DNA from: a candidate division FCPU426 bacterium
Lineage (GTDB): Bacteria > Oederibacteriota > Muellerivitia > Muellerivitales > Muellerivitaceae
Reading direction: 5' to 3'
Length of the DNA: 64,000 nucleotides
Assembly (NCBI GenBank): GCA_963738405.1
Contig: CAVTWJ010000009.1
Location: forward strand, 4,793 to 68,792
The stretch's first letter is position 1. Every line of letters begins with the position of its first letter. Below the pieces are notes generated by a model. That model did no database searches. It saw only the letters and a list, made by a program, of their open reading frames with translations, and was not told where the DNA came from. Positions 33,521 to 39,094 of the stretch are shown one piece after another. The translations under genes were made by a program, and so were the position numbers.

Positions 33521-33852
33521 CCCCCCACATTCCCCTTATCTTTCAGTACATTCTGCCGTTCGGTTTGGCGGTTTTAGGTTTTTGGGGCCTGACTTCCTTC
33601 ACCCGCCTGGACCAAAAAGCGGGAGCTTGGTTGATGCTCCAATTGGCCGTTGGGGTTTTCCTCCTTCAACTCGCTTTTGAAAACCCTGCCGCAGGCTCCA
33701 CAGGCGCCAATCCCTTTGTTCTTTCTTTAGGTGTGATGGTCGCCTTAACCGGTCTTTTGGTTTTCTCGCTTCTTTTGGGGCTGGCCATTTTTTTAAAGAG
33801 GCAGAACGGCAGTTGGGACGGGGATGAAATCAACCGGAGGCTGAAACCTTGA
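33517..33852 (+). CDS. MrpC/NuoK-like membrane subunit
   Basis: About 111 aa with 3 TM. Start overlaps the previous stop. Confidence 0.5.
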   Translation: MTPHIPLIFQYILPFGLAVLGFWGLTSFTRLDQKAGAWLMLQLAVGVFLLQLAFENPAAGSTGANPFVLSLGVMVALTGLLVFSLLLGLAIFLKRQNGSWDGDEINRRLKP

Positions 33853-35360
33853 ATCCTAACGGGCCGATCCTACTCCTTCTTCTGCCCTGGGTGGGCGCCT
33901 TGCTGACCCTGGGGGCGGCTTTTCTTTCCCGCCGATTATGTTCCCTGATTTATCTCGCGGCCTTGGGGCTGGACGGCTGGATTCTTTTTCAAACCTTTAC
34001 TCCGGTTCTTACGAACGGATTTTTGAATTACCAGTTAGGAGGATGGGCCCCGCCCTGGGGGATTGAGCTGGTGGAAACCCCCTTCAACGCCTTGCTTTGC
34101 GGTTTTGTCCTGCTGGTAGCTTTCTCAGCCTGGTTTTACGCCCGAAGGCTCCGCCTGCCGGGGCCCACGGGGGCAAGACGCGAACGATGGCTCCTTTCCC
34201 TCTTTTTGTTTCTTACCGGGACCGCCTTGGGGCTTTTGCTTTTACGGGACGCCTTTTCCCTTTACCTGCTGTTGGAAGCCCTGGTGATTTTTGGAGCGGG
34301 GACGATCCTCCTCCTCAACCCTAAGGGCGCGCTGGACGCCTACCGGCTTTTGCTTTGGGGCAGCGCCGCCGCCACGCTTTATCTTTTGGGAGTGGTTTTT
34401 CTCGCAGCCTCGGCGGGAACCGTCCAACTGGATGACATTCTTGCCCAGCTCTTTACCTCCAAGACCCCGGGCGTGGCCCTGGCCGCAGGGTTTTTAACGG
34501 TCTTTGCCTGGGCCTTCCCGGCCCTATTCCCCGCGCCGGCCCTCTATAGCCGCCTCTTAAACCACACCCCCTCTTTCGTCACCGGCTTTCTGGTTTCCTT
34601 GGGGGCTAGGGCTACGGGCTACCTTTTATTCGTGTTGTGTTTCTTCACCCTGAATGTGCCGGGGCTTCTTTTACCCCTCGGGGCCGAGGCGCTTCTTTAC
34701 GGCCTCGTTCTCTTTTTCTTTTCCGGATTTGTCTTGGCCCCGCGCCAGAAAGATTTTCAACAGGCCATGGCCTACTTGGCCGTGGCGCAGGGCGGATACC
34801 TTTTGGCGGGTTTTATTTTGGGCAACAAGAGCGGCCTGGCGGGAAGCCTGCTGGAATTGTTAAGCCAAACCCTGGCCGTGGCCGGGTTGTTCTTCGTGTC
34901 GGAGAGCCTGCGCCAGGGCGCGGGGCCCCACCCCCTTTCCCGGATGATCGGCCTGGCCCGGCACCGCTTCTGGACCTGGACGGCGCTGATGGTTTTTCTG
35001 GCCTCGGCGGTGGGCGTCCCGCCCACGGGCGGGTTCTTCGCGAAGTTCTATTTATTCCAAGGCGCCCTGGAAAAACACGACTGGGTCCTGCTGGCGATTC
35101 TTTCCGCGGCGGCCATCTTTAATCTTTATTACCTGGGCAAATTTACCTTTTACCTTTGCGAGCACCGGCCTTCGGTGCCCGACCTGCCGCCCCCCTCTTT
35201 TTCATCCCTGTTCCCCATCATGGTTTTGGCGGCGGGGGTTTTGTTGCTGGGGGTTCTGCACCAGGAAGTGCTTCAAACTTTTGTGGAGCCGGCCCTGCCC
35301 AGGGCCTTCCAAAACCTGCCGGTGCCCAATGTGCCCTTCCTGGGCAAGGCTGTTGAATAA
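33849..35360 (+). CDS. MrpD/NuoN/NuoL-family proton-translocating antiporter-like subunit
   Basis: 503 aa with about 14 TM and a NuoN-like N-terminus; overlapping start. Confidence 0.65.
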   Translation: MNPNGPILLLLLPWVGALLTLGAAFLSRRLCSLIYLAALGLDGWILFQTFTPVLTNGFLNYQLGGWAPPWGIELVETPFNALLCGFVLLVAFSAWFYARRLRLPGPTGARRERWLLSLFLFLTGTALGLLLLRDAFSLYLLLEALVIFGAGTILLLNPKGALDAYRLLLWGSAAATLYLLGVVFLAASAGTVQLDDILAQLFTSKTPGVALAAGFLTVFAWAFPALFPAPALYSRLLNHTPSFVTGFLVSLGARATGYLLFVLCFFTLNVPGLLLPLGAEALLYGLVLFFFSGFVLAPRQKDFQQAMAYLAVAQGGYLLAGFILGNKSGLAGSLLELLSQTLAVAGLFFVSESLRQGAGPHPLSRMIGLARHRFWTWTALMVFLASAVGVPPTGGFFAKFYLFQGALEKHDWVLLAILSAAAIFNLYYLGKFTFYLCEHRPSVPDLPPPSFSSLFPIMVLAAGVLLLGVLHQEVLQTFVEPALPRAFQNLPVPNVPFLGKAVE

Positions 35361-35409
35361 TCCTCCAACCGCGCCTCAAATCTCCCCTAAAAGCTCAATA
35401 ACCGCTCCC

Positions 35410-35441
35410 TTGACTCTAGACTATACTCTAGAGTCTATACT
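35410..35441 (+). promoter_or_regulatory. MerR-type promoter: TTGACT -35, 20-bp spacer containing the dyad CTCTAGA-N6-TCTAGAG, TATACT -10
   Basis: ttgactctagactatactctagagtctatact, 19 bp upstream of the MerR-family gene start. Confidence 0.7.
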
Positions 35442-35459
35442 TTCTTCAGGGAGAGCCCC

Positions 35460-35849
35460 ATGGAACAAATCCAAGTCAGCCTGCAGATCGGCGAGGTCGC
35501 CAAGGCCAGCGGACTTTCTATCCATACCATCCGCTATTACGAAAAGGAGGGGCTGCTCAAAGAGCCTTTTCGAAGCGGGGGCGGTTTCCGGCTTTACCCT
35601 GGTGAAACCGTAGATCAACTGCTTTTCATCCAGAAGGCCCAGGGTTTCGGGCTGACCCTGAATGAGATCAAGCAAATCATGTGCTGCGGGGACCAGGGGC
35701 TGGGCCCCTGCTGCGATCTGACGGTGGACCTGTTCGCGAAAAAAATTGACGAGTTCGAGGCCAAGATCAAGGAACTGCAGGGCATGAAGAAGAAATTGAA
35801 GACCGTGTTGGGAAGCTGGGTGGGAAAGAAAAAAAGTAAGGGAGGCTGA
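35460..35849 (+). CDS. MerR-family transcriptional regulator with vicinal cysteine pairs (C75 C76 ... C84 C85)
   Basis: HTH IGEVAKASGLSIHTIRYYEKEGLL. MCCGDQGLGPCC precedes the coiled-coil. No C-terminal metal loop. Confidence 0.8.
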   Translation: MEQIQVSLQIGEVAKASGLSIHTIRYYEKEGLLKEPFRSGGGFRLYPGETVDQLLFIQKAQGFGLTLNEIKQIMCCGDQGLGPCCDLTVDLFAKKIDEFEAKIKELQGMKKKLKTVLGSWVGKKKSKGG

Positions 35850-35850
35850 T

Positions 35851-36291
35851 ATGGCGCAAAAGGTCTTGATTCTCTGCACAAAAAACTCCTGCCGGTCCCA
35901 AATGGCGGAAGGGGTTTTAAAACATTACGGCGGCGATAAGTTCATCGTCGAGAGCGCGGGCTTGGAGCCCACCCACGTCAACAAGAACGCCATCAAGGTG
36001 ATGGCGGAAATCGGCATCGACATTTCGGGGCAACATTCAAAAGACGTAGTCGATTTTCTCGGGGATTACTTCGGCTACATCATCACCGTCTGCTCCGACG
36101 CGGATCAAAGATGCCCTATCTTCCCTGGGGTATCCAGGAGGCTCTATTGGCCCTTTAACGACCCGCCCCAGACGGAAGTGGAAACGCCGGAGATTCTGGA
36201 TGAGTTCCGGAAGGTGAGGGACGAGATCGTCGTAAAGTTCAAGGAAGTCGCTGAGAAGGGCTTCCCGCTTATCGCCGAGTCGAAGGGTTAA
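35851..36291 (+). CDS. arsC: arsenate reductase, LMW-PTP/thioredoxin-coupled type
   Basis: CTKNSCRSQMAEG P-loop; ITVCSDADQRCP. Confidence 0.8.
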   Translation: MAQKVLILCTKNSCRSQMAEGVLKHYGGDKFIVESAGLEPTHVNKNAIKVMAEIGIDISGQHSKDVVDFLGDYFGYIITVCSDADQRCPIFPGVSRRLYWPFNDPPQTEVETPEILDEFRKVRDEIVVKFKEVAEKGFPLIAESKG

Positions 36292-36312: not shown

Positions 36313-37161
36313 ATGGAAAATCATCCCGCCGAGTCTGAAAAGATCAAATCCGCCGTGAGGGAAAGATACGGCAAGATCGCCGAATCAGCCCAGCCGACCT
36401 CCTGCTGCGGGATGGAAGAATCCCAAACGCCTTCTTCCTGCTGCGGGGGAGGGGAAGAGAAGGGCGGGTTCTCCTACAGCTTCATCGGGGAAGATTACCA
36501 GAAGCTTCCGGGCTACCAGCCCGAGGCGGACCTGGGGCTGGGCTGCGGCCTTCCCACCGAATTGGCGGTTATCCAGGAGGGGGACCATGTCCTTGACCTG
36601 GGGAGCGGGGCCGGCAACGACGCCTTCGTGGCCCGCCGGATCGTGGGGGAAAAGGGCCGGGTGACCGGCGTGGATATGACGCCCCAAATGATCGAAAAGG
36701 CGAAAGCCAACAGCCAAAAGCTGGGTTATGCCAATGTGGATTTTCTTCTAGGTGAAATCGAAAAACTTCCCTTAGCTGACGGCACGGTGGATGTGGTGAT
36801 CAGCAATTGCGTCCTGAACCTGGTGCCTGACAAGGCGCAAGCCTTTAAGGAAATCTTCCGGGTGCTCAAACCCGGGGGCCATTTCAATGTTTCGGATATC
36901 GTGCTGGACCGGGAATTGCCCGAAAAACTCCGCAGGGAAGCCGAACTTTACGTGGGTTGCGTTTCGGGAGCCAGCCGGCGGAGTGAATATTTGGAATTGA
37001 TTCAAAGCGCGGGTTTTAAAGATGTCCGGGTTCAAAAAGACCGCCGGGTGGATGTTCCGCAGGAAATCCTGAAGAAGTACCTGAGCCAAGCTGAATTGCG
37101 GGAAATGGAAGCGTGGGGCTTAGGCATCGCCAGCATCACGGTTTGGGGCGTGAAGCCTTGA
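36313..37161 (+). CDS. arsM: arsenite S-adenosylmethionine methyltransferase
   Basis: N-terminal cysteine pairs SCCGMEESQTPSSCCGGG. SAM motif VLDLGSGAGNDAF. VISNCVLNLVPDK. Confidence 0.8.
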   Translation: MENHPAESEKIKSAVRERYGKIAESAQPTSCCGMEESQTPSSCCGGGEEKGGFSYSFIGEDYQKLPGYQPEADLGLGCGLPTELAVIQEGDHVLDLGSGAGNDAFVARRIVGEKGRVTGVDMTPQMIEKAKANSQKLGYANVDFLLGEIEKLPLADGTVDVVISNCVLNLVPDKAQAFKEIFRVLKPGGHFNVSDIVLDRELPEKLRREAELYVGCVSGASRRSEYLELIQSAGFKDVRVQKDRRVDVPQEILKKYLSQAELREMEAWGLGIASITVWGVKP

Positions 37162-37217: not shown

Positions 37218-38255
37218 ATGAACATTTTCGAGCGGTACCTATCCCTATGGGTCGCTCTTTGCATGGGTTTAGGCATCCTCATCGGAAAATTTTTTCCCCA
37301 GGTCGTTACCTCCCTTCAAGGCATGGAATTCGGCACTGGAAGCCATATCAACATTCCCATCGCCATTCTCATCTGGCTGATGATCTACCCCATGATGTTG
37401 AAGATTGATTTTGCGTCCCTCAAAGGCGTGGGGAAGAAGCCGAAGGGTTTGCTGGTGACCCTTTTCGTCAATTGGCTGGTCAAACCCTTTTCCATGGCCC
37501 TCTTCGGATGGTTGTTCCTCAAAGTTCTCTTCGTCCCCTGGCTGGGGCCCGAGATGGCCAACCAATATCTGGCGGGGGTCATTATCCTGGCCGCCGCTCC
37601 CTGCACGGCCATGGTTTTTGTCTGGTCCTATTTGGCGGGCGGGGACGCGGCCTATACCCTGGTTCAGGTTTCCGTGAACGACCTCATCATGTTGGTGGCT
37701 TTCGCCCCGATCGTGCGGTTCCTTGTGTCGGGCGCCTCGGGGTTGGAAGTGCCTTTCCAGGTTCTTTTATATTCGGTGGTCATCTTTGTGGTGATCCCCT
37801 TAAGTCTAGGGGCTTTGAGCCGTTGGACCCTTATTCGGGCCAAGGGCGCCAGATGGTTTAATGAAAAATTCATGACCTTCTTTCATCCCCTCACCATCCT
37901 GGCCCTGTTGGCCACACTGGTTTTAATTTTCGCCTTTCAGGCCGGGAACATCACGAACCGCTGGGTCGATGTGTTCCTCATCGCCATCCCGATCCTGATC
38001 CAGGTCTATTTCAACGCGGGTTTGGCCTACGGTTTGATGAAACTTTTTAAAGTGCCCTATCCGGTGGCGGCGCCGGGCGCGTTGATTGGCGCCTCGAATT
38101 TCTTTGAGTTGGCGGTGGCGACCGCCATCGCGCTTTACGGGCCCGGAAGCGGGGCCGCTTTGGCGACGGTGGTGGGGGTCCTAGTGGAGGTTCCGGTCAT
38201 GCTATCGGTTTGTTCCATTTGCGTTTCGAGTAAAAAATGGTTTGAAAAGGGCTGA
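37218..38255 (+). CDS. acr3: ACR3-family arsenite efflux transporter
   Basis: MNIFERYLSLWVALCMGLGILIGKFFP is a typical ACR3 N-terminus; 10 TM. Confidence 0.8.
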   Translation: MNIFERYLSLWVALCMGLGILIGKFFPQVVTSLQGMEFGTGSHINIPIAILIWLMIYPMMLKIDFASLKGVGKKPKGLLVTLFVNWLVKPFSMALFGWLFLKVLFVPWLGPEMANQYLAGVIILAAAPCTAMVFVWSYLAGGDAAYTLVQVSVNDLIMLVAFAPIVRFLVSGASGLEVPFQVLLYSVVIFVVIPLSLGALSRWTLIRAKGARWFNEKFMTFFHPLTILALLATLVLIFAFQAGNITNRWVDVFLIAIPILIQVYFNAGLAYGLMKLFKVPYPVAAPGALIGASNFFELAVATAIALYGPGSGAALATVVGVLVEVPVMLSVCSICVSSKKWFEKG

Positions 38256-38275
38256 CCCCGAAAGTGTTTTTTGTT

Positions 38276-38313
38276 CCAAGACCCTGCGGGTCTTTGGTTT
38301 TGACTTTCTCTTT
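38276..38313 (+). terminator. rho-independent terminator after acr3
   Basis: CCAAGACCC-tgc-GGGTCTTTGG followed by TTTTGACTTTCTCTTT. Confidence 0.5.
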
Positions 38314-38442
38314 CCGCCGGTCAGGTTTGCGGGGCCCACTGGAACGGGCAGCTCCACCCGTAAGTCCTGGCCGGGGAAGGAGTTTTCAACCGCTTGATTT
38401 ACGATGGCGCTCGTCTCAAATTAAATCATGAAGGAATAACCC

Positions 38443-38844
38443 ATGAAAAAAATCCTTTTTCTCTGCGTGGCCAATTCGGCCCGGAGCCAAATGGCCGAAG
38501 GGTTAGCCAAGGCTTACTTTGGGGATCAGGCCCTCGTTCAAAGCGCCGGATCCAAACCCTCGAAGGTGAATCCCTACGCCGTCATGGCGATGGCTGAAAT
38601 CAACATCGACATTTCCAAAAACCGGTCCAAGTCGGTGGAAGAGATCGACCCTTCCACCGTGGACACGGTCATCACCCTTTGCGCCGAGGAGGAATGCCCG
38701 GTCTTTTTAGGAAAGGCCGAAAGGTTCCATTGGGGCCTTCCAGACCCGGGCGTGGGAAAAAACACCGATGAAGAAAAGCTTCAAAGCTTCCGGGAAGTCC
38801 GCGATGAAATAAAAAAAAGAATTGAAGCGCGATTTCCCAAATAA
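38443..38844 (+). CDS. arsC: second LMW-PTP-type arsenate reductase
   Basis: [13 protein letters not shown]; [10 protein letters not shown]. Confidence 0.75.
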
Positions 38845-38851
38845 AAAGGGA

Positions 38852-39094
38852 TTACAGAGTCTTGTGGGTGCCGTCGCAGTAGGGCTTGTTCTTGGAATGC
38901 TTGCACTGGCACAAGAAGGCGGTCTTGGTTTCCTCGGCCTTGAATACGATAGGCGCAAAACCCTCGTGTTCCTTATGGCTTCCGTCGCAAAAGGGCTGGC
39001 TCTTGGAATAACCGCAGGCGCACCAGGCGTAGGTTTTTCCGGATTCCAACTCGACCTTGGCGGGGAATTTGGCGGCGATATTCGGCTCGGACAT
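38852..39094 (-). CDS. CDGSH iron-sulfur domain protein (two CDGSH motifs)
   Basis: CDGSHKEHEG and CDGTHK. Confidence 0.8.
   Translation of the reverse strand: MSEPNIAAKFPAKVELESGKTYAWCACGYSKSQPFCDGSHKEHEGFAPIVFKAEETKTAFLCQCKHSKNKPYCDGTHKTL

Follow-up and report, generated by a model that had tools for sequence, protein, structure and literature searches.

The MerR family of bacterial regulators senses Hg, Cd, Pb, Zn, Cu/Ag/Au, Co and Fe-related signals. The spacer between the two promoter hexamers is 19 bp in the MerR and CueR systems and 20 bp in the ZntR variant, and in the mer operons of Gram-positive bacteria merR is the first gene of the operon that MerR activates. The bacterial regulators characterised as binding As(III) directly are, to our knowledge, all repressors of the ArsR/SmtB type, and characterised As(III) sites are three-cysteine sites. 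Canonical MerR activators work on promoters with 19-20 bp spacers and act by under-winding the DNA (PMC11672702). No metalloid is listed among the MerR-family effectors in that comprehensive 2024 Chem Rev review, and no arsenic- or metalloid-sensing MerR was found there or in the full-text literature, subscription journals lying outside the scope of the search; in a survey of ars clusters (PMC6205960) the word 'MerR' is absent. Described here is a MerR-family regulator that precedes arsenic resistance (ars) genes in a candidate division FCPU426 bacterium (GCA_963738405.1, contig CAVTWJ010000009.1, positions 4,793 to 68,792). This whole 64,000-nucleotide stretch is termed the window, and positions are counted from its first letter. 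The probability that the regulator is an arsenite-responsive MerR-type activator heading an ars operon of its own is put at about 0.62.

The regulator, its promoter and its cysteine motif are located as follows:

35410-35415, + strand: -35 hexamer TTGACT, read directly
35436-35441, + strand: -10 hexamer TATACT, read directly, 20 bp past the -35 hexamer
35416-35435: spacer CTAGACTATACTCTAGAGTC, exactly 20 bp
35412-35435, strandless: operator GACTCTAGA-N6-TCTAGAGTC, a perfect 9+9 inverted repeat, reverse complementarity verified
35449-35455, + strand: Shine-Dalgarno-like GGGAGAG, ahead of the ATG at 35460
35460-35849, + strand: MerR-family regulator, 129 amino acids, a short form without the C-terminal metal-binding loop
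35682-35714, + strand: codons for Cys75-Cys76-GDQGLGP-Cys84-Cys85, the proposed As(III) site at the hinge between helices 4 and 5

A promoter composed of TTGACT, a 20-bp spacer with a dyad and TATACT had been described in an earlier note on this DNA, and each of these elements is where it had been placed. The half-sites (GACTCTAGA at 35412-35420 and TCTAGAGTC at 35427-35435) are arranged around a dyad centre at 35423/35424, in the middle of the spacer. The operator pattern is found once in the 64 kb, with 0.00 occurrences expected from shuffled sequences. There is no second operator copy in the 64-kb window, for example before arsC2, and a scan for standard sigma-70 promoters with 16-18 bp spacers detected none within 34.8-39.6 kb. 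The geometry is kept in 51/51 promoters (the window and 50 homologous loci), which display TTGAC(T/C/A), exactly 20 bp, TAnnnT and a centred palindrome. When these promoters are aligned, the palindrome centre falls between spacer positions 8 and 9, and the family operator consensus is CTGGAGTATACTCYAGAGTG.

The Escherichia coli zntA promoter, PzntA, reads TTGACT-ctggagtcgactccagagtg-TATCCT in NC_000913.3, and its geometry and half-sites match those of the window promoter. The two systems have in common the MerR fold of the regulator, the TTGACT hexamer, the 20-bp spacer and the centred palindrome with CTGGAGT half-sites. The PzntA spacer is identical at 17/20 positions to the spacers of two homologous loci, L028 and L030. 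In the window only 18 nt separate the -10 hexamer from the ATG, and the distance is 16-19 nt in nearly all of the 50 homologous loci. As the -10 hexamer is so near the start codon, the mRNA must have a near-minimal leader, its 5' end falling on the Shine-Dalgarno sequence or only a few bases away from it. The database gene calls P0032 and P0045 (compare the window open reading frame 35281-35613) have upstream starts, with the operator translated as '...LTLEYTP...'; such calls give the regulator false N-terminal extensions.

Membership of the MerR family, as the earlier note had it, is agreed upon by Pfam, NCBIfam, an AlphaFold2 (AF2) monomer model and Foldseek. The Pfam matches are MerR_1 (1.7e-17) and MerR (2.2e-16), both above their gathering scores, and MerR-DNA-bind over residues 51-115, with E-values ranging from 1.7e-17 to 2.5e-13. 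Against the NCBIfam equivalog models the protein scores 87 bits for MerR (cutoff 150.85), 84.6 for CadR-PbrR (151.45) and 82.2 for CueR (147.4), and 79.6-84.9 bits for the ZntR models, with cutoffs of 143-168 (the best being 84.9 against 143). It thus reaches about half of each cutoff for the Hg, Zn, Cd and Cu sensor models and is a member of none of these classes. NCBIfam has no model dedicated to it and gives only these sub-threshold Hg, Zn, Cd and Cu sensor matches; database names of its relatives are generic ('MerR family', 'heavy metal-responsive'). The AF2 monomer (predicted local distance difference test, pLDDT, 81.8) has helix 4 at residues 67-79, a GLGP turn at 80-83 and helix 5 at 84-120. 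The top Foldseek structures are CadR, PbrR, CueR and MerR, with TM-scores of 0.71-0.77, and the best sequence match to a solved structure is Bacillus megaterium MerR (PDB 4ua1, E = 1.5e-19).

The absence of the usual C-terminal metal loop, also pointed out in the earlier note, is borne out: the tail after helix 5 is GSWVGKKKSKGG, has neither Cys nor His, and the protein stops where the loop would be. ZntR binds Zn(II) through the loop residues Cys114, Cys115, His119 and Cys124, all absent from the window regulator, as these positions align to the SWVGKKKSKGG tail or past the protein end. ZntR is also encoded apart from its target gene. A cysteine stands at the N-terminal end of its dimerisation helix, as in the window regulator. 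The Hg(II)-sensing MerR of B. megaterium resembles the window regulator in that its Cys79 aligns with Cys84 and in that a sister clade of the regulator heads MerT/MerC genes. It differs in that the partner subunit supplies two of the three ligands, from a C-terminal loop that the window regulator does not have, in its 19-bp spacer as against 20 bp in the window, and in its mer rather than ars neighbours. PbrR and CadR (PDB 5gpe and 6jgx), the top structural neighbours, use a cross-subunit site made of the helix-5 cysteine and two loop cysteines, unlike the intra-subunit hinge site proposed here; the geometry in which PbrR holds Pb(II) is, however, the one that As(III) prefers.

The regulator has four cysteines in all, at positions 75, 76, 84 and 85. 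The earlier note had described these as two vicinal pairs, CC-x7-CC, and the positions are correct, but it is only part of the pattern that is conserved. A search of 5.8 billion protein clusters gave 148 relatives, of which 120 were aligned for conservation. Among these 120 homologues G80, L81, P83, C84 and C85 do not vary, and at least 90% have C76, a level of conservation equal to that of the DNA-binding residues. Cys75 is variable and found in 85/120, so the conserved unit is C-x7-CC, comprising Cys76, Cys84 and Cys85. In almost all members of the type that precedes ars genes (ars-type), the cysteines of the motif are the sole cysteines of the protein. Cys76 is present in 26/26 ars-type proteins vs 14/24 proteins of the longer sister form described below (Fisher p = 2e-4, with kinship ignored).

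The location of the cysteines also had to be amended. They had been placed just before the dimerisation helix, whereas in the AF2 model Cys84 and Cys85 are the first residues of that helix, and Cys76, Cys84 and Cys85 flank the four-residue turn that joins helices 4 and 5. In the phmmer alignment Cys84 corresponds to Cys79 of Bacillus MerR (4ua1) and to the equivalent PbrR and CadR cysteines; in the MAFFT alignment ZntR Cys79 corresponds to Cys85, and the register is thus ambiguous by one residue. By these alignments one member of the Cys84/Cys85 pair is the canonical helix-5 ligand of the divalent-metal MerRs. The cysteine placement had been thought atypical for the family; on alignment to characterised MerRs this holds for the loop ligands, which are gone, but not for the helix-5 cysteine, and the site is therefore only partly non-canonical.

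A mechanism can be proposed in which the apo dimer sits on the operator and keeps the mis-spaced promoter inactive. As(III), produced by ArsC from As(V) or entering directly, would be bound by three thiolates of one subunit: Cys76 at the end of helix 4, and Cys84 and Cys85 at the start of the dimerisation helix, with Cys75 a possible fourth ligand in the window protein. Binding would clamp or stiffen the hinge and change the orientation of the DNA-binding domains with respect to the coiled coil. The spacer would then be kinked and under-wound, as in MerR, CueR and ZntR, and RNA polymerase could engage both hexamers. With the regulator first in the operon, the proposal implies positive autoregulation of induction. 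There are precedents for such a site. In PbrR, Pb(II) is held in a trigonal-pyramidal site of three cysteines, including that of helix 5, with a stereo-active lone pair (PMC11672702), and in AfArsR As(III) is bound by three cysteines within a short stretch of one chain (PMC11212059). By analogy with the ArsR proteins and PbrR, Cys76, Cys84 and Cys85 may form a three-thiolate pyramidal As(III) site.

The ArsR/SmtB repressors (R773 ArsR, AfArsR, CgArsR) share with the window regulator a place as first gene and arsenic-dependent control of ars genes, the latter here proposed. Canonical ArsR sensors carry a C-(V/A)-C motif (PMC11672702). They have an unrelated winged-helix fold and leave the DNA upon binding As(III), unlike the window system, where the promoter architecture implies activation by a regulator that stays DNA-bound.

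The association with ars genes is found throughout the relatives of the regulator. In a scan that took a single genome for each species, 80 loci were found, of which all except three are from uncultured metagenome-assembled genomes (MAGs). Hosts of the ars-type loci and of loci with mercury-type genes (mer-type) are FCPU426, Firestonebacteria, Omnitrophota, Planctomycetota/Brocadiales and others. When phmmer was run against 1.84 billion 50%-identity representatives, three clusters were found at E <= 1e-30, beyond which scores fall to ~80 bits, the level of generic metal-sensing MerRs; this drop marks a small, sharply delimited family. The short form of the regulator, with 121-134 amino acids and C-x7-CC, is represented by 25 genome loci, and only the basal L020 and L022 have a C-terminal cysteine. 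In 25/25 of these loci ars genes begin -3 to +135 nt from the regulator stop codon. A scan of metagenome contigs, carried out as an attempt at falsification, gave the same result, with ArsI, ArsC, MIP or Acr3 directly downstream in 6/6 short-form loci. Over all 31/31 genome and metagenome loci with downstream sequence, the ars genes start between -15 and +135 nt from the stop codon. The earlier note had held that its reading would fall if homologues were never linked to ars genes, and they are so linked in all 25 genome and all six metagenome loci.

The gene content of these operons is also informative. ArsC is encoded in 25/25 short-form genome loci, and over all 31 loci it is there wherever the downstream sequence extends far enough. 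Each of the 25 has exactly one exit route for arsenite, Acr3 in 9 and an aquaporin-family (MIP) channel in 16. ArsM is present in 4/25, plus the window, and an ArsI/CadI-family enzyme in 8/25 (143-144 bits, cutoff 116). As ArsC and Acr3 or MIP are universal and ArsM and ArsI facultative, the common denominator is inorganic As(V)/As(III). Directly downstream of the regulator, 0/31 short-form loci have a gene for a P-type ATPase, CDF, MerT, MerC or MerA. Two ars-type copies, L003 and L006, are found together on contig CAVRAL010000004.1. Two Microcoleus loci, L075 and L077, in which MIP and ArsC are 2.3-4.4 kb from a MerR gene, were set aside as unrelated: the MerR proteins are distant, at most 40% identical, with a canonical long form that lacks the motif, and the ars-type genes are not adjacent to the regulator gene.

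In the window itself, the regulator is followed by these features:

35851-36291, + strand: arsC1, thioredoxin-type arsenate reductase of the low-molecular-weight (LMW) phosphatase family (Pfam LMWPc)
36313-37161, + strand: arsM, As(III) S-adenosylmethionine methyltransferase (NF008823, 342.9 bits, cutoff 263)
~37218-38255, + strand: acr3, arsenite efflux permease (TIGR00832, 371.7 bits, cutoff 282.8)
38278-38294, + strand: terminator-like hairpin in the acr3-arsC2 spacer
38443-38844, + strand: arsC2, second arsenate reductase of the LMW-phosphatase family, last gene of the cluster
38852-39094, - strand: CDGSH gene, convergent, closing the cluster

All genes from the regulator to arsC2 are co-oriented, with intergenic gaps of 1, 21, ~56 and 187 nt, and an arsenate reductase and an As(III) exporter are thus found together in the tight, co-oriented arrangement of an ars operon. 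arsC1 starts 1 nt beyond the regulator stop codon; its best NCBIfam match is arsC_pI258_fam, at 133 bits and under the equivalog cutoff of 174, and orthologues with 59-95% identity are directly behind the regulator in many loci. The best match of arsC2 is also arsC_pI258_fam, under the cutoff, and its orthologue is the terminal operon gene in most related loci. The acr3 open reading frame opens at a GTG at 37113, sharing 49 nt with the end of arsM, and the family match runs from residue 36 of that frame. The longer call is probably an over-extension, the family match beginning at the ATG at 37218. The acr3-arsC2 spacer (38256-38442, 187 nt) is strongly structured, with a minimum free energy of -73.2 kcal/mol (z = -3.75), and internal attenuation or processing may take place at its hairpin. 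As acr3 and arsC2 are only ~10-15 nt apart in L002 and L005, the spacer is a lineage-specific insertion. Upstream, on the strand of the regulator, an antiporter-like gene (33849-35360) ends 50 nt before the palindrome. Scans of the full 64-kb window detected neither a tRNA gene nor an Rfam family above the gathering score.

The long form of the regulator constitutes a sister clade (L024-L045, for example L024:6983-8937 and L036:2812-4462). It is represented by 24 genome loci encoding proteins of 135-160 amino acids, with the helix-5 CC pair and one cysteine in an ...AVCPQIE... tail that falls, on alignment, near ZntR Cys124. At least 17 of the 24 head genes for MerT-HMA fusions, MerC, a 2Fe-2S metallochaperone of the CopZ N-terminal type, thioredoxin-like proteins or DUF2703 proteins, and long-form loci on metagenome contigs again have MerT or MerC. 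ArsC is found among the long-form loci only in L029, behind MerTP-CopZ. The long form looks like an atypical mercury-type MerR with a ligand set unlike the classical Cys79/114/123. In a neighbour-joining tree all ars-type proteins form one clade nested among the long forms. Contig JAJDCD010000008.1 carries an ars-type locus (L022) and a mer-type locus (L031) 23 kb apart, and their operator half-sites differ (TTAGAGTTAGCTCTAA vs CTGGAGTATACTCTAG); the divergence is consistent with insulation of the two regulons.

From this arrangement an origin of the ars-type lineage can be suggested. In a long-form ancestor, Hg(II) would have been held between the subunits, with Cys84 and Cys85 contributed by one and the tail cysteine by the other. 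The ars-type lineage would have arisen from such a mercury-type MerR by loss of the C-terminal loop and fixation of Cys76 as third ligand. Loss of the tail with a switch to Cys76, Cys84 and Cys85 within a single subunit seems the most economical reading.

Any explanation of the locus has to accommodate what is established at the level of sequence, namely MerR membership, a promoter with the operator in its spacer, the operon structure, strict ars linkage, the three-cysteine motif and loss of the loop. That the inducer is a trivalent organoarsenical (methylarsenite, MAs(III)) or antimonite, and not inorganic As(III), appears unlikely. Several short-form operons do have ArsM and ArsI/CadI-family genes, and some ArsR variants, such as AntR, show selectivity for MAs(III) or Sb(III) (PMC12641948). 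However, ArsM (4/25 and the window) and ArsI (8/25) are each found in a minority, whereas ArsC with an exporter or channel for As(III) is present throughout, and MAs(III) needs two thiolates, fewer than the three that are conserved. A conventional Hg(II), Cd(II), Pb(II) or Zn(II) sensor that drives or cross-regulates the ars genes, arsenite not being its physiological inducer, is a rather unlikely alternative. It would account for the fact that MerR, PbrR, CadR and ZntR are the closest characterised relatives, for Cys84/Cys85 at the conserved ligand position of the soft-metal sensors, for the ZntR-like operator and for a sister clade that heads mer-type genes. It is hard to reconcile with 31/31 short-form loci that have ars genes, and no heavy-metal transporter or MerA, directly downstream, with scores of about half the equivalog cutoffs for Hg, Cd, Pb and Zn sensors, and with deletion of the loop that provides at least two ligands for these metals.

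A thiol or redox-stress sensor of the NmlR/AdhR kind, working by disulfide formation or alkylation and responding indirectly to thiol depletion by arsenic, is quite improbable. NmlR and AdhR are MerR-family proteins without a C-terminal sensor loop that signal through cysteines elsewhere; HiNmlR (5d8c) is a structural neighbour of the window regulator, and nearby or vicinal cysteines such as those of the motif are able to form disulfides. These proteins, however, respond to carbonyl or nitrosative stress, have adh-type targets and show another cysteine pattern, and the window regulator scores 40.7 bits on the NmlR model (cutoff 175). The short-form regulon is arsenic-specific (ArsC, Acr3 or MIP, ArsM, ArsI) and includes no aldehyde dehydrogenase, thioredoxin or peroxidase genes, and three conserved cysteines in a rigid G-L-x-P turn are better suited to a metalloid site made of three thiolates than to a redox switch made of two cysteines. 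It is highly improbable that the palindrome is merely the intrinsic terminator of the antiporter-like gene at 33849-35360 and that the MerR-like protein regulates something else. A terminator scan does flag 35412-35435, as a stem of 9 pairs followed by a T-rich stretch, and 50 nt upstream is the end of the antiporter-like gene, which has the orientation of the regulator gene. Yet the register of the palindrome relative to the -35 and -10 hexamers is fixed in 51 loci, compared over their promoter regions, no T-run behind it is conserved across the 51, the stem is AT-rich (4 GC of 9 pairs), and the palindrome matches the ZntR operator of PzntA.

The earlier note had described the ars operon as lacking ArsR. 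With R773 ArsR, SmtB and CadC as phmmer seeds, no ArsR/SmtB open reading frame was found among those of the 64-kb window, and the regulator itself has no HTH_20, HTH_5 or NF033788 match of the ArsR type. The same three seeds detect ArsR-like open reading frames in L005, L012, L020 and L022, so the search has power, although a very divergent or very short ArsR could escape it. The claim therefore stands for the window and does not extend to all related loci.

The basal ars-type loci L020 and L022 are among several points that weigh against an arsenite-sensing MerR that replaces ArsR. In both, an ArsR-family gene is immediately upstream on the same strand (L020:6294-6635 and L022:6347-6778); the L022 gene passes the NF033788 cutoff of 55 with 68.6 bits and carries a CxC motif, EICGCEF. 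The pairing of ArsR with the MerR-type protein could represent dual control or a transitional state, and because of it arsenic sensing in some members may not depend solely or primarily on the MerR-type protein. For the window organism, it is possible that an ArsR is encoded beyond the 64 kb. As(III) as effector is deduced solely from gene neighbourhood and cysteine chemistry, and Hg(II), Cd(II), Sb(III) and Bi(III) would likewise bind to a site of three thiolates. We know of no MerR member that is switched at the hinge instead of at the dimer-interface loop, and the AF2 monomer is least confident at the motif itself (residues 71-90, pLDDT 68-70). Every carrier of the family is an uncultured MAG, and the loci are phylogenetically related, so that 31/31 overstates the number of independent events and the synteny is perhaps partly due to shared ancestry.

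An arsenite-responsive activator remains the preferred interpretation of the regulator. The fuller proposal, a metalloid sensor of the MerR family that is the first of its kind, replaces ArsR, binds its effector at an intra-subunit hinge site of Cys76, Cys84 and Cys85 and descends from a mercury-type ancestor by deletion of the loop, is evenly poised between true and false. Judged from the sequences compared, the short-form proteins are probably a branch of MerR-family sensors with a new class of effector and a relocated effector site.

If this is true, a metalloid joins the MerR repertoire and there is a second, independent evolutionary route to arsenic sensing. The family would also provide a natural test of MerR switching from the hinge rather than from a metal-binding loop. 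MerR-type switches usually have a lower background and a steeper response than ArsR de-repression circuits, and a compact activator of 125 amino acids with a 32-bp promoter would become available for arsenic biosensors. The paired ars-type and mer-type clades, sometimes present on one contig, offer a tractable system for the study of how effector and operator specificity diverge.

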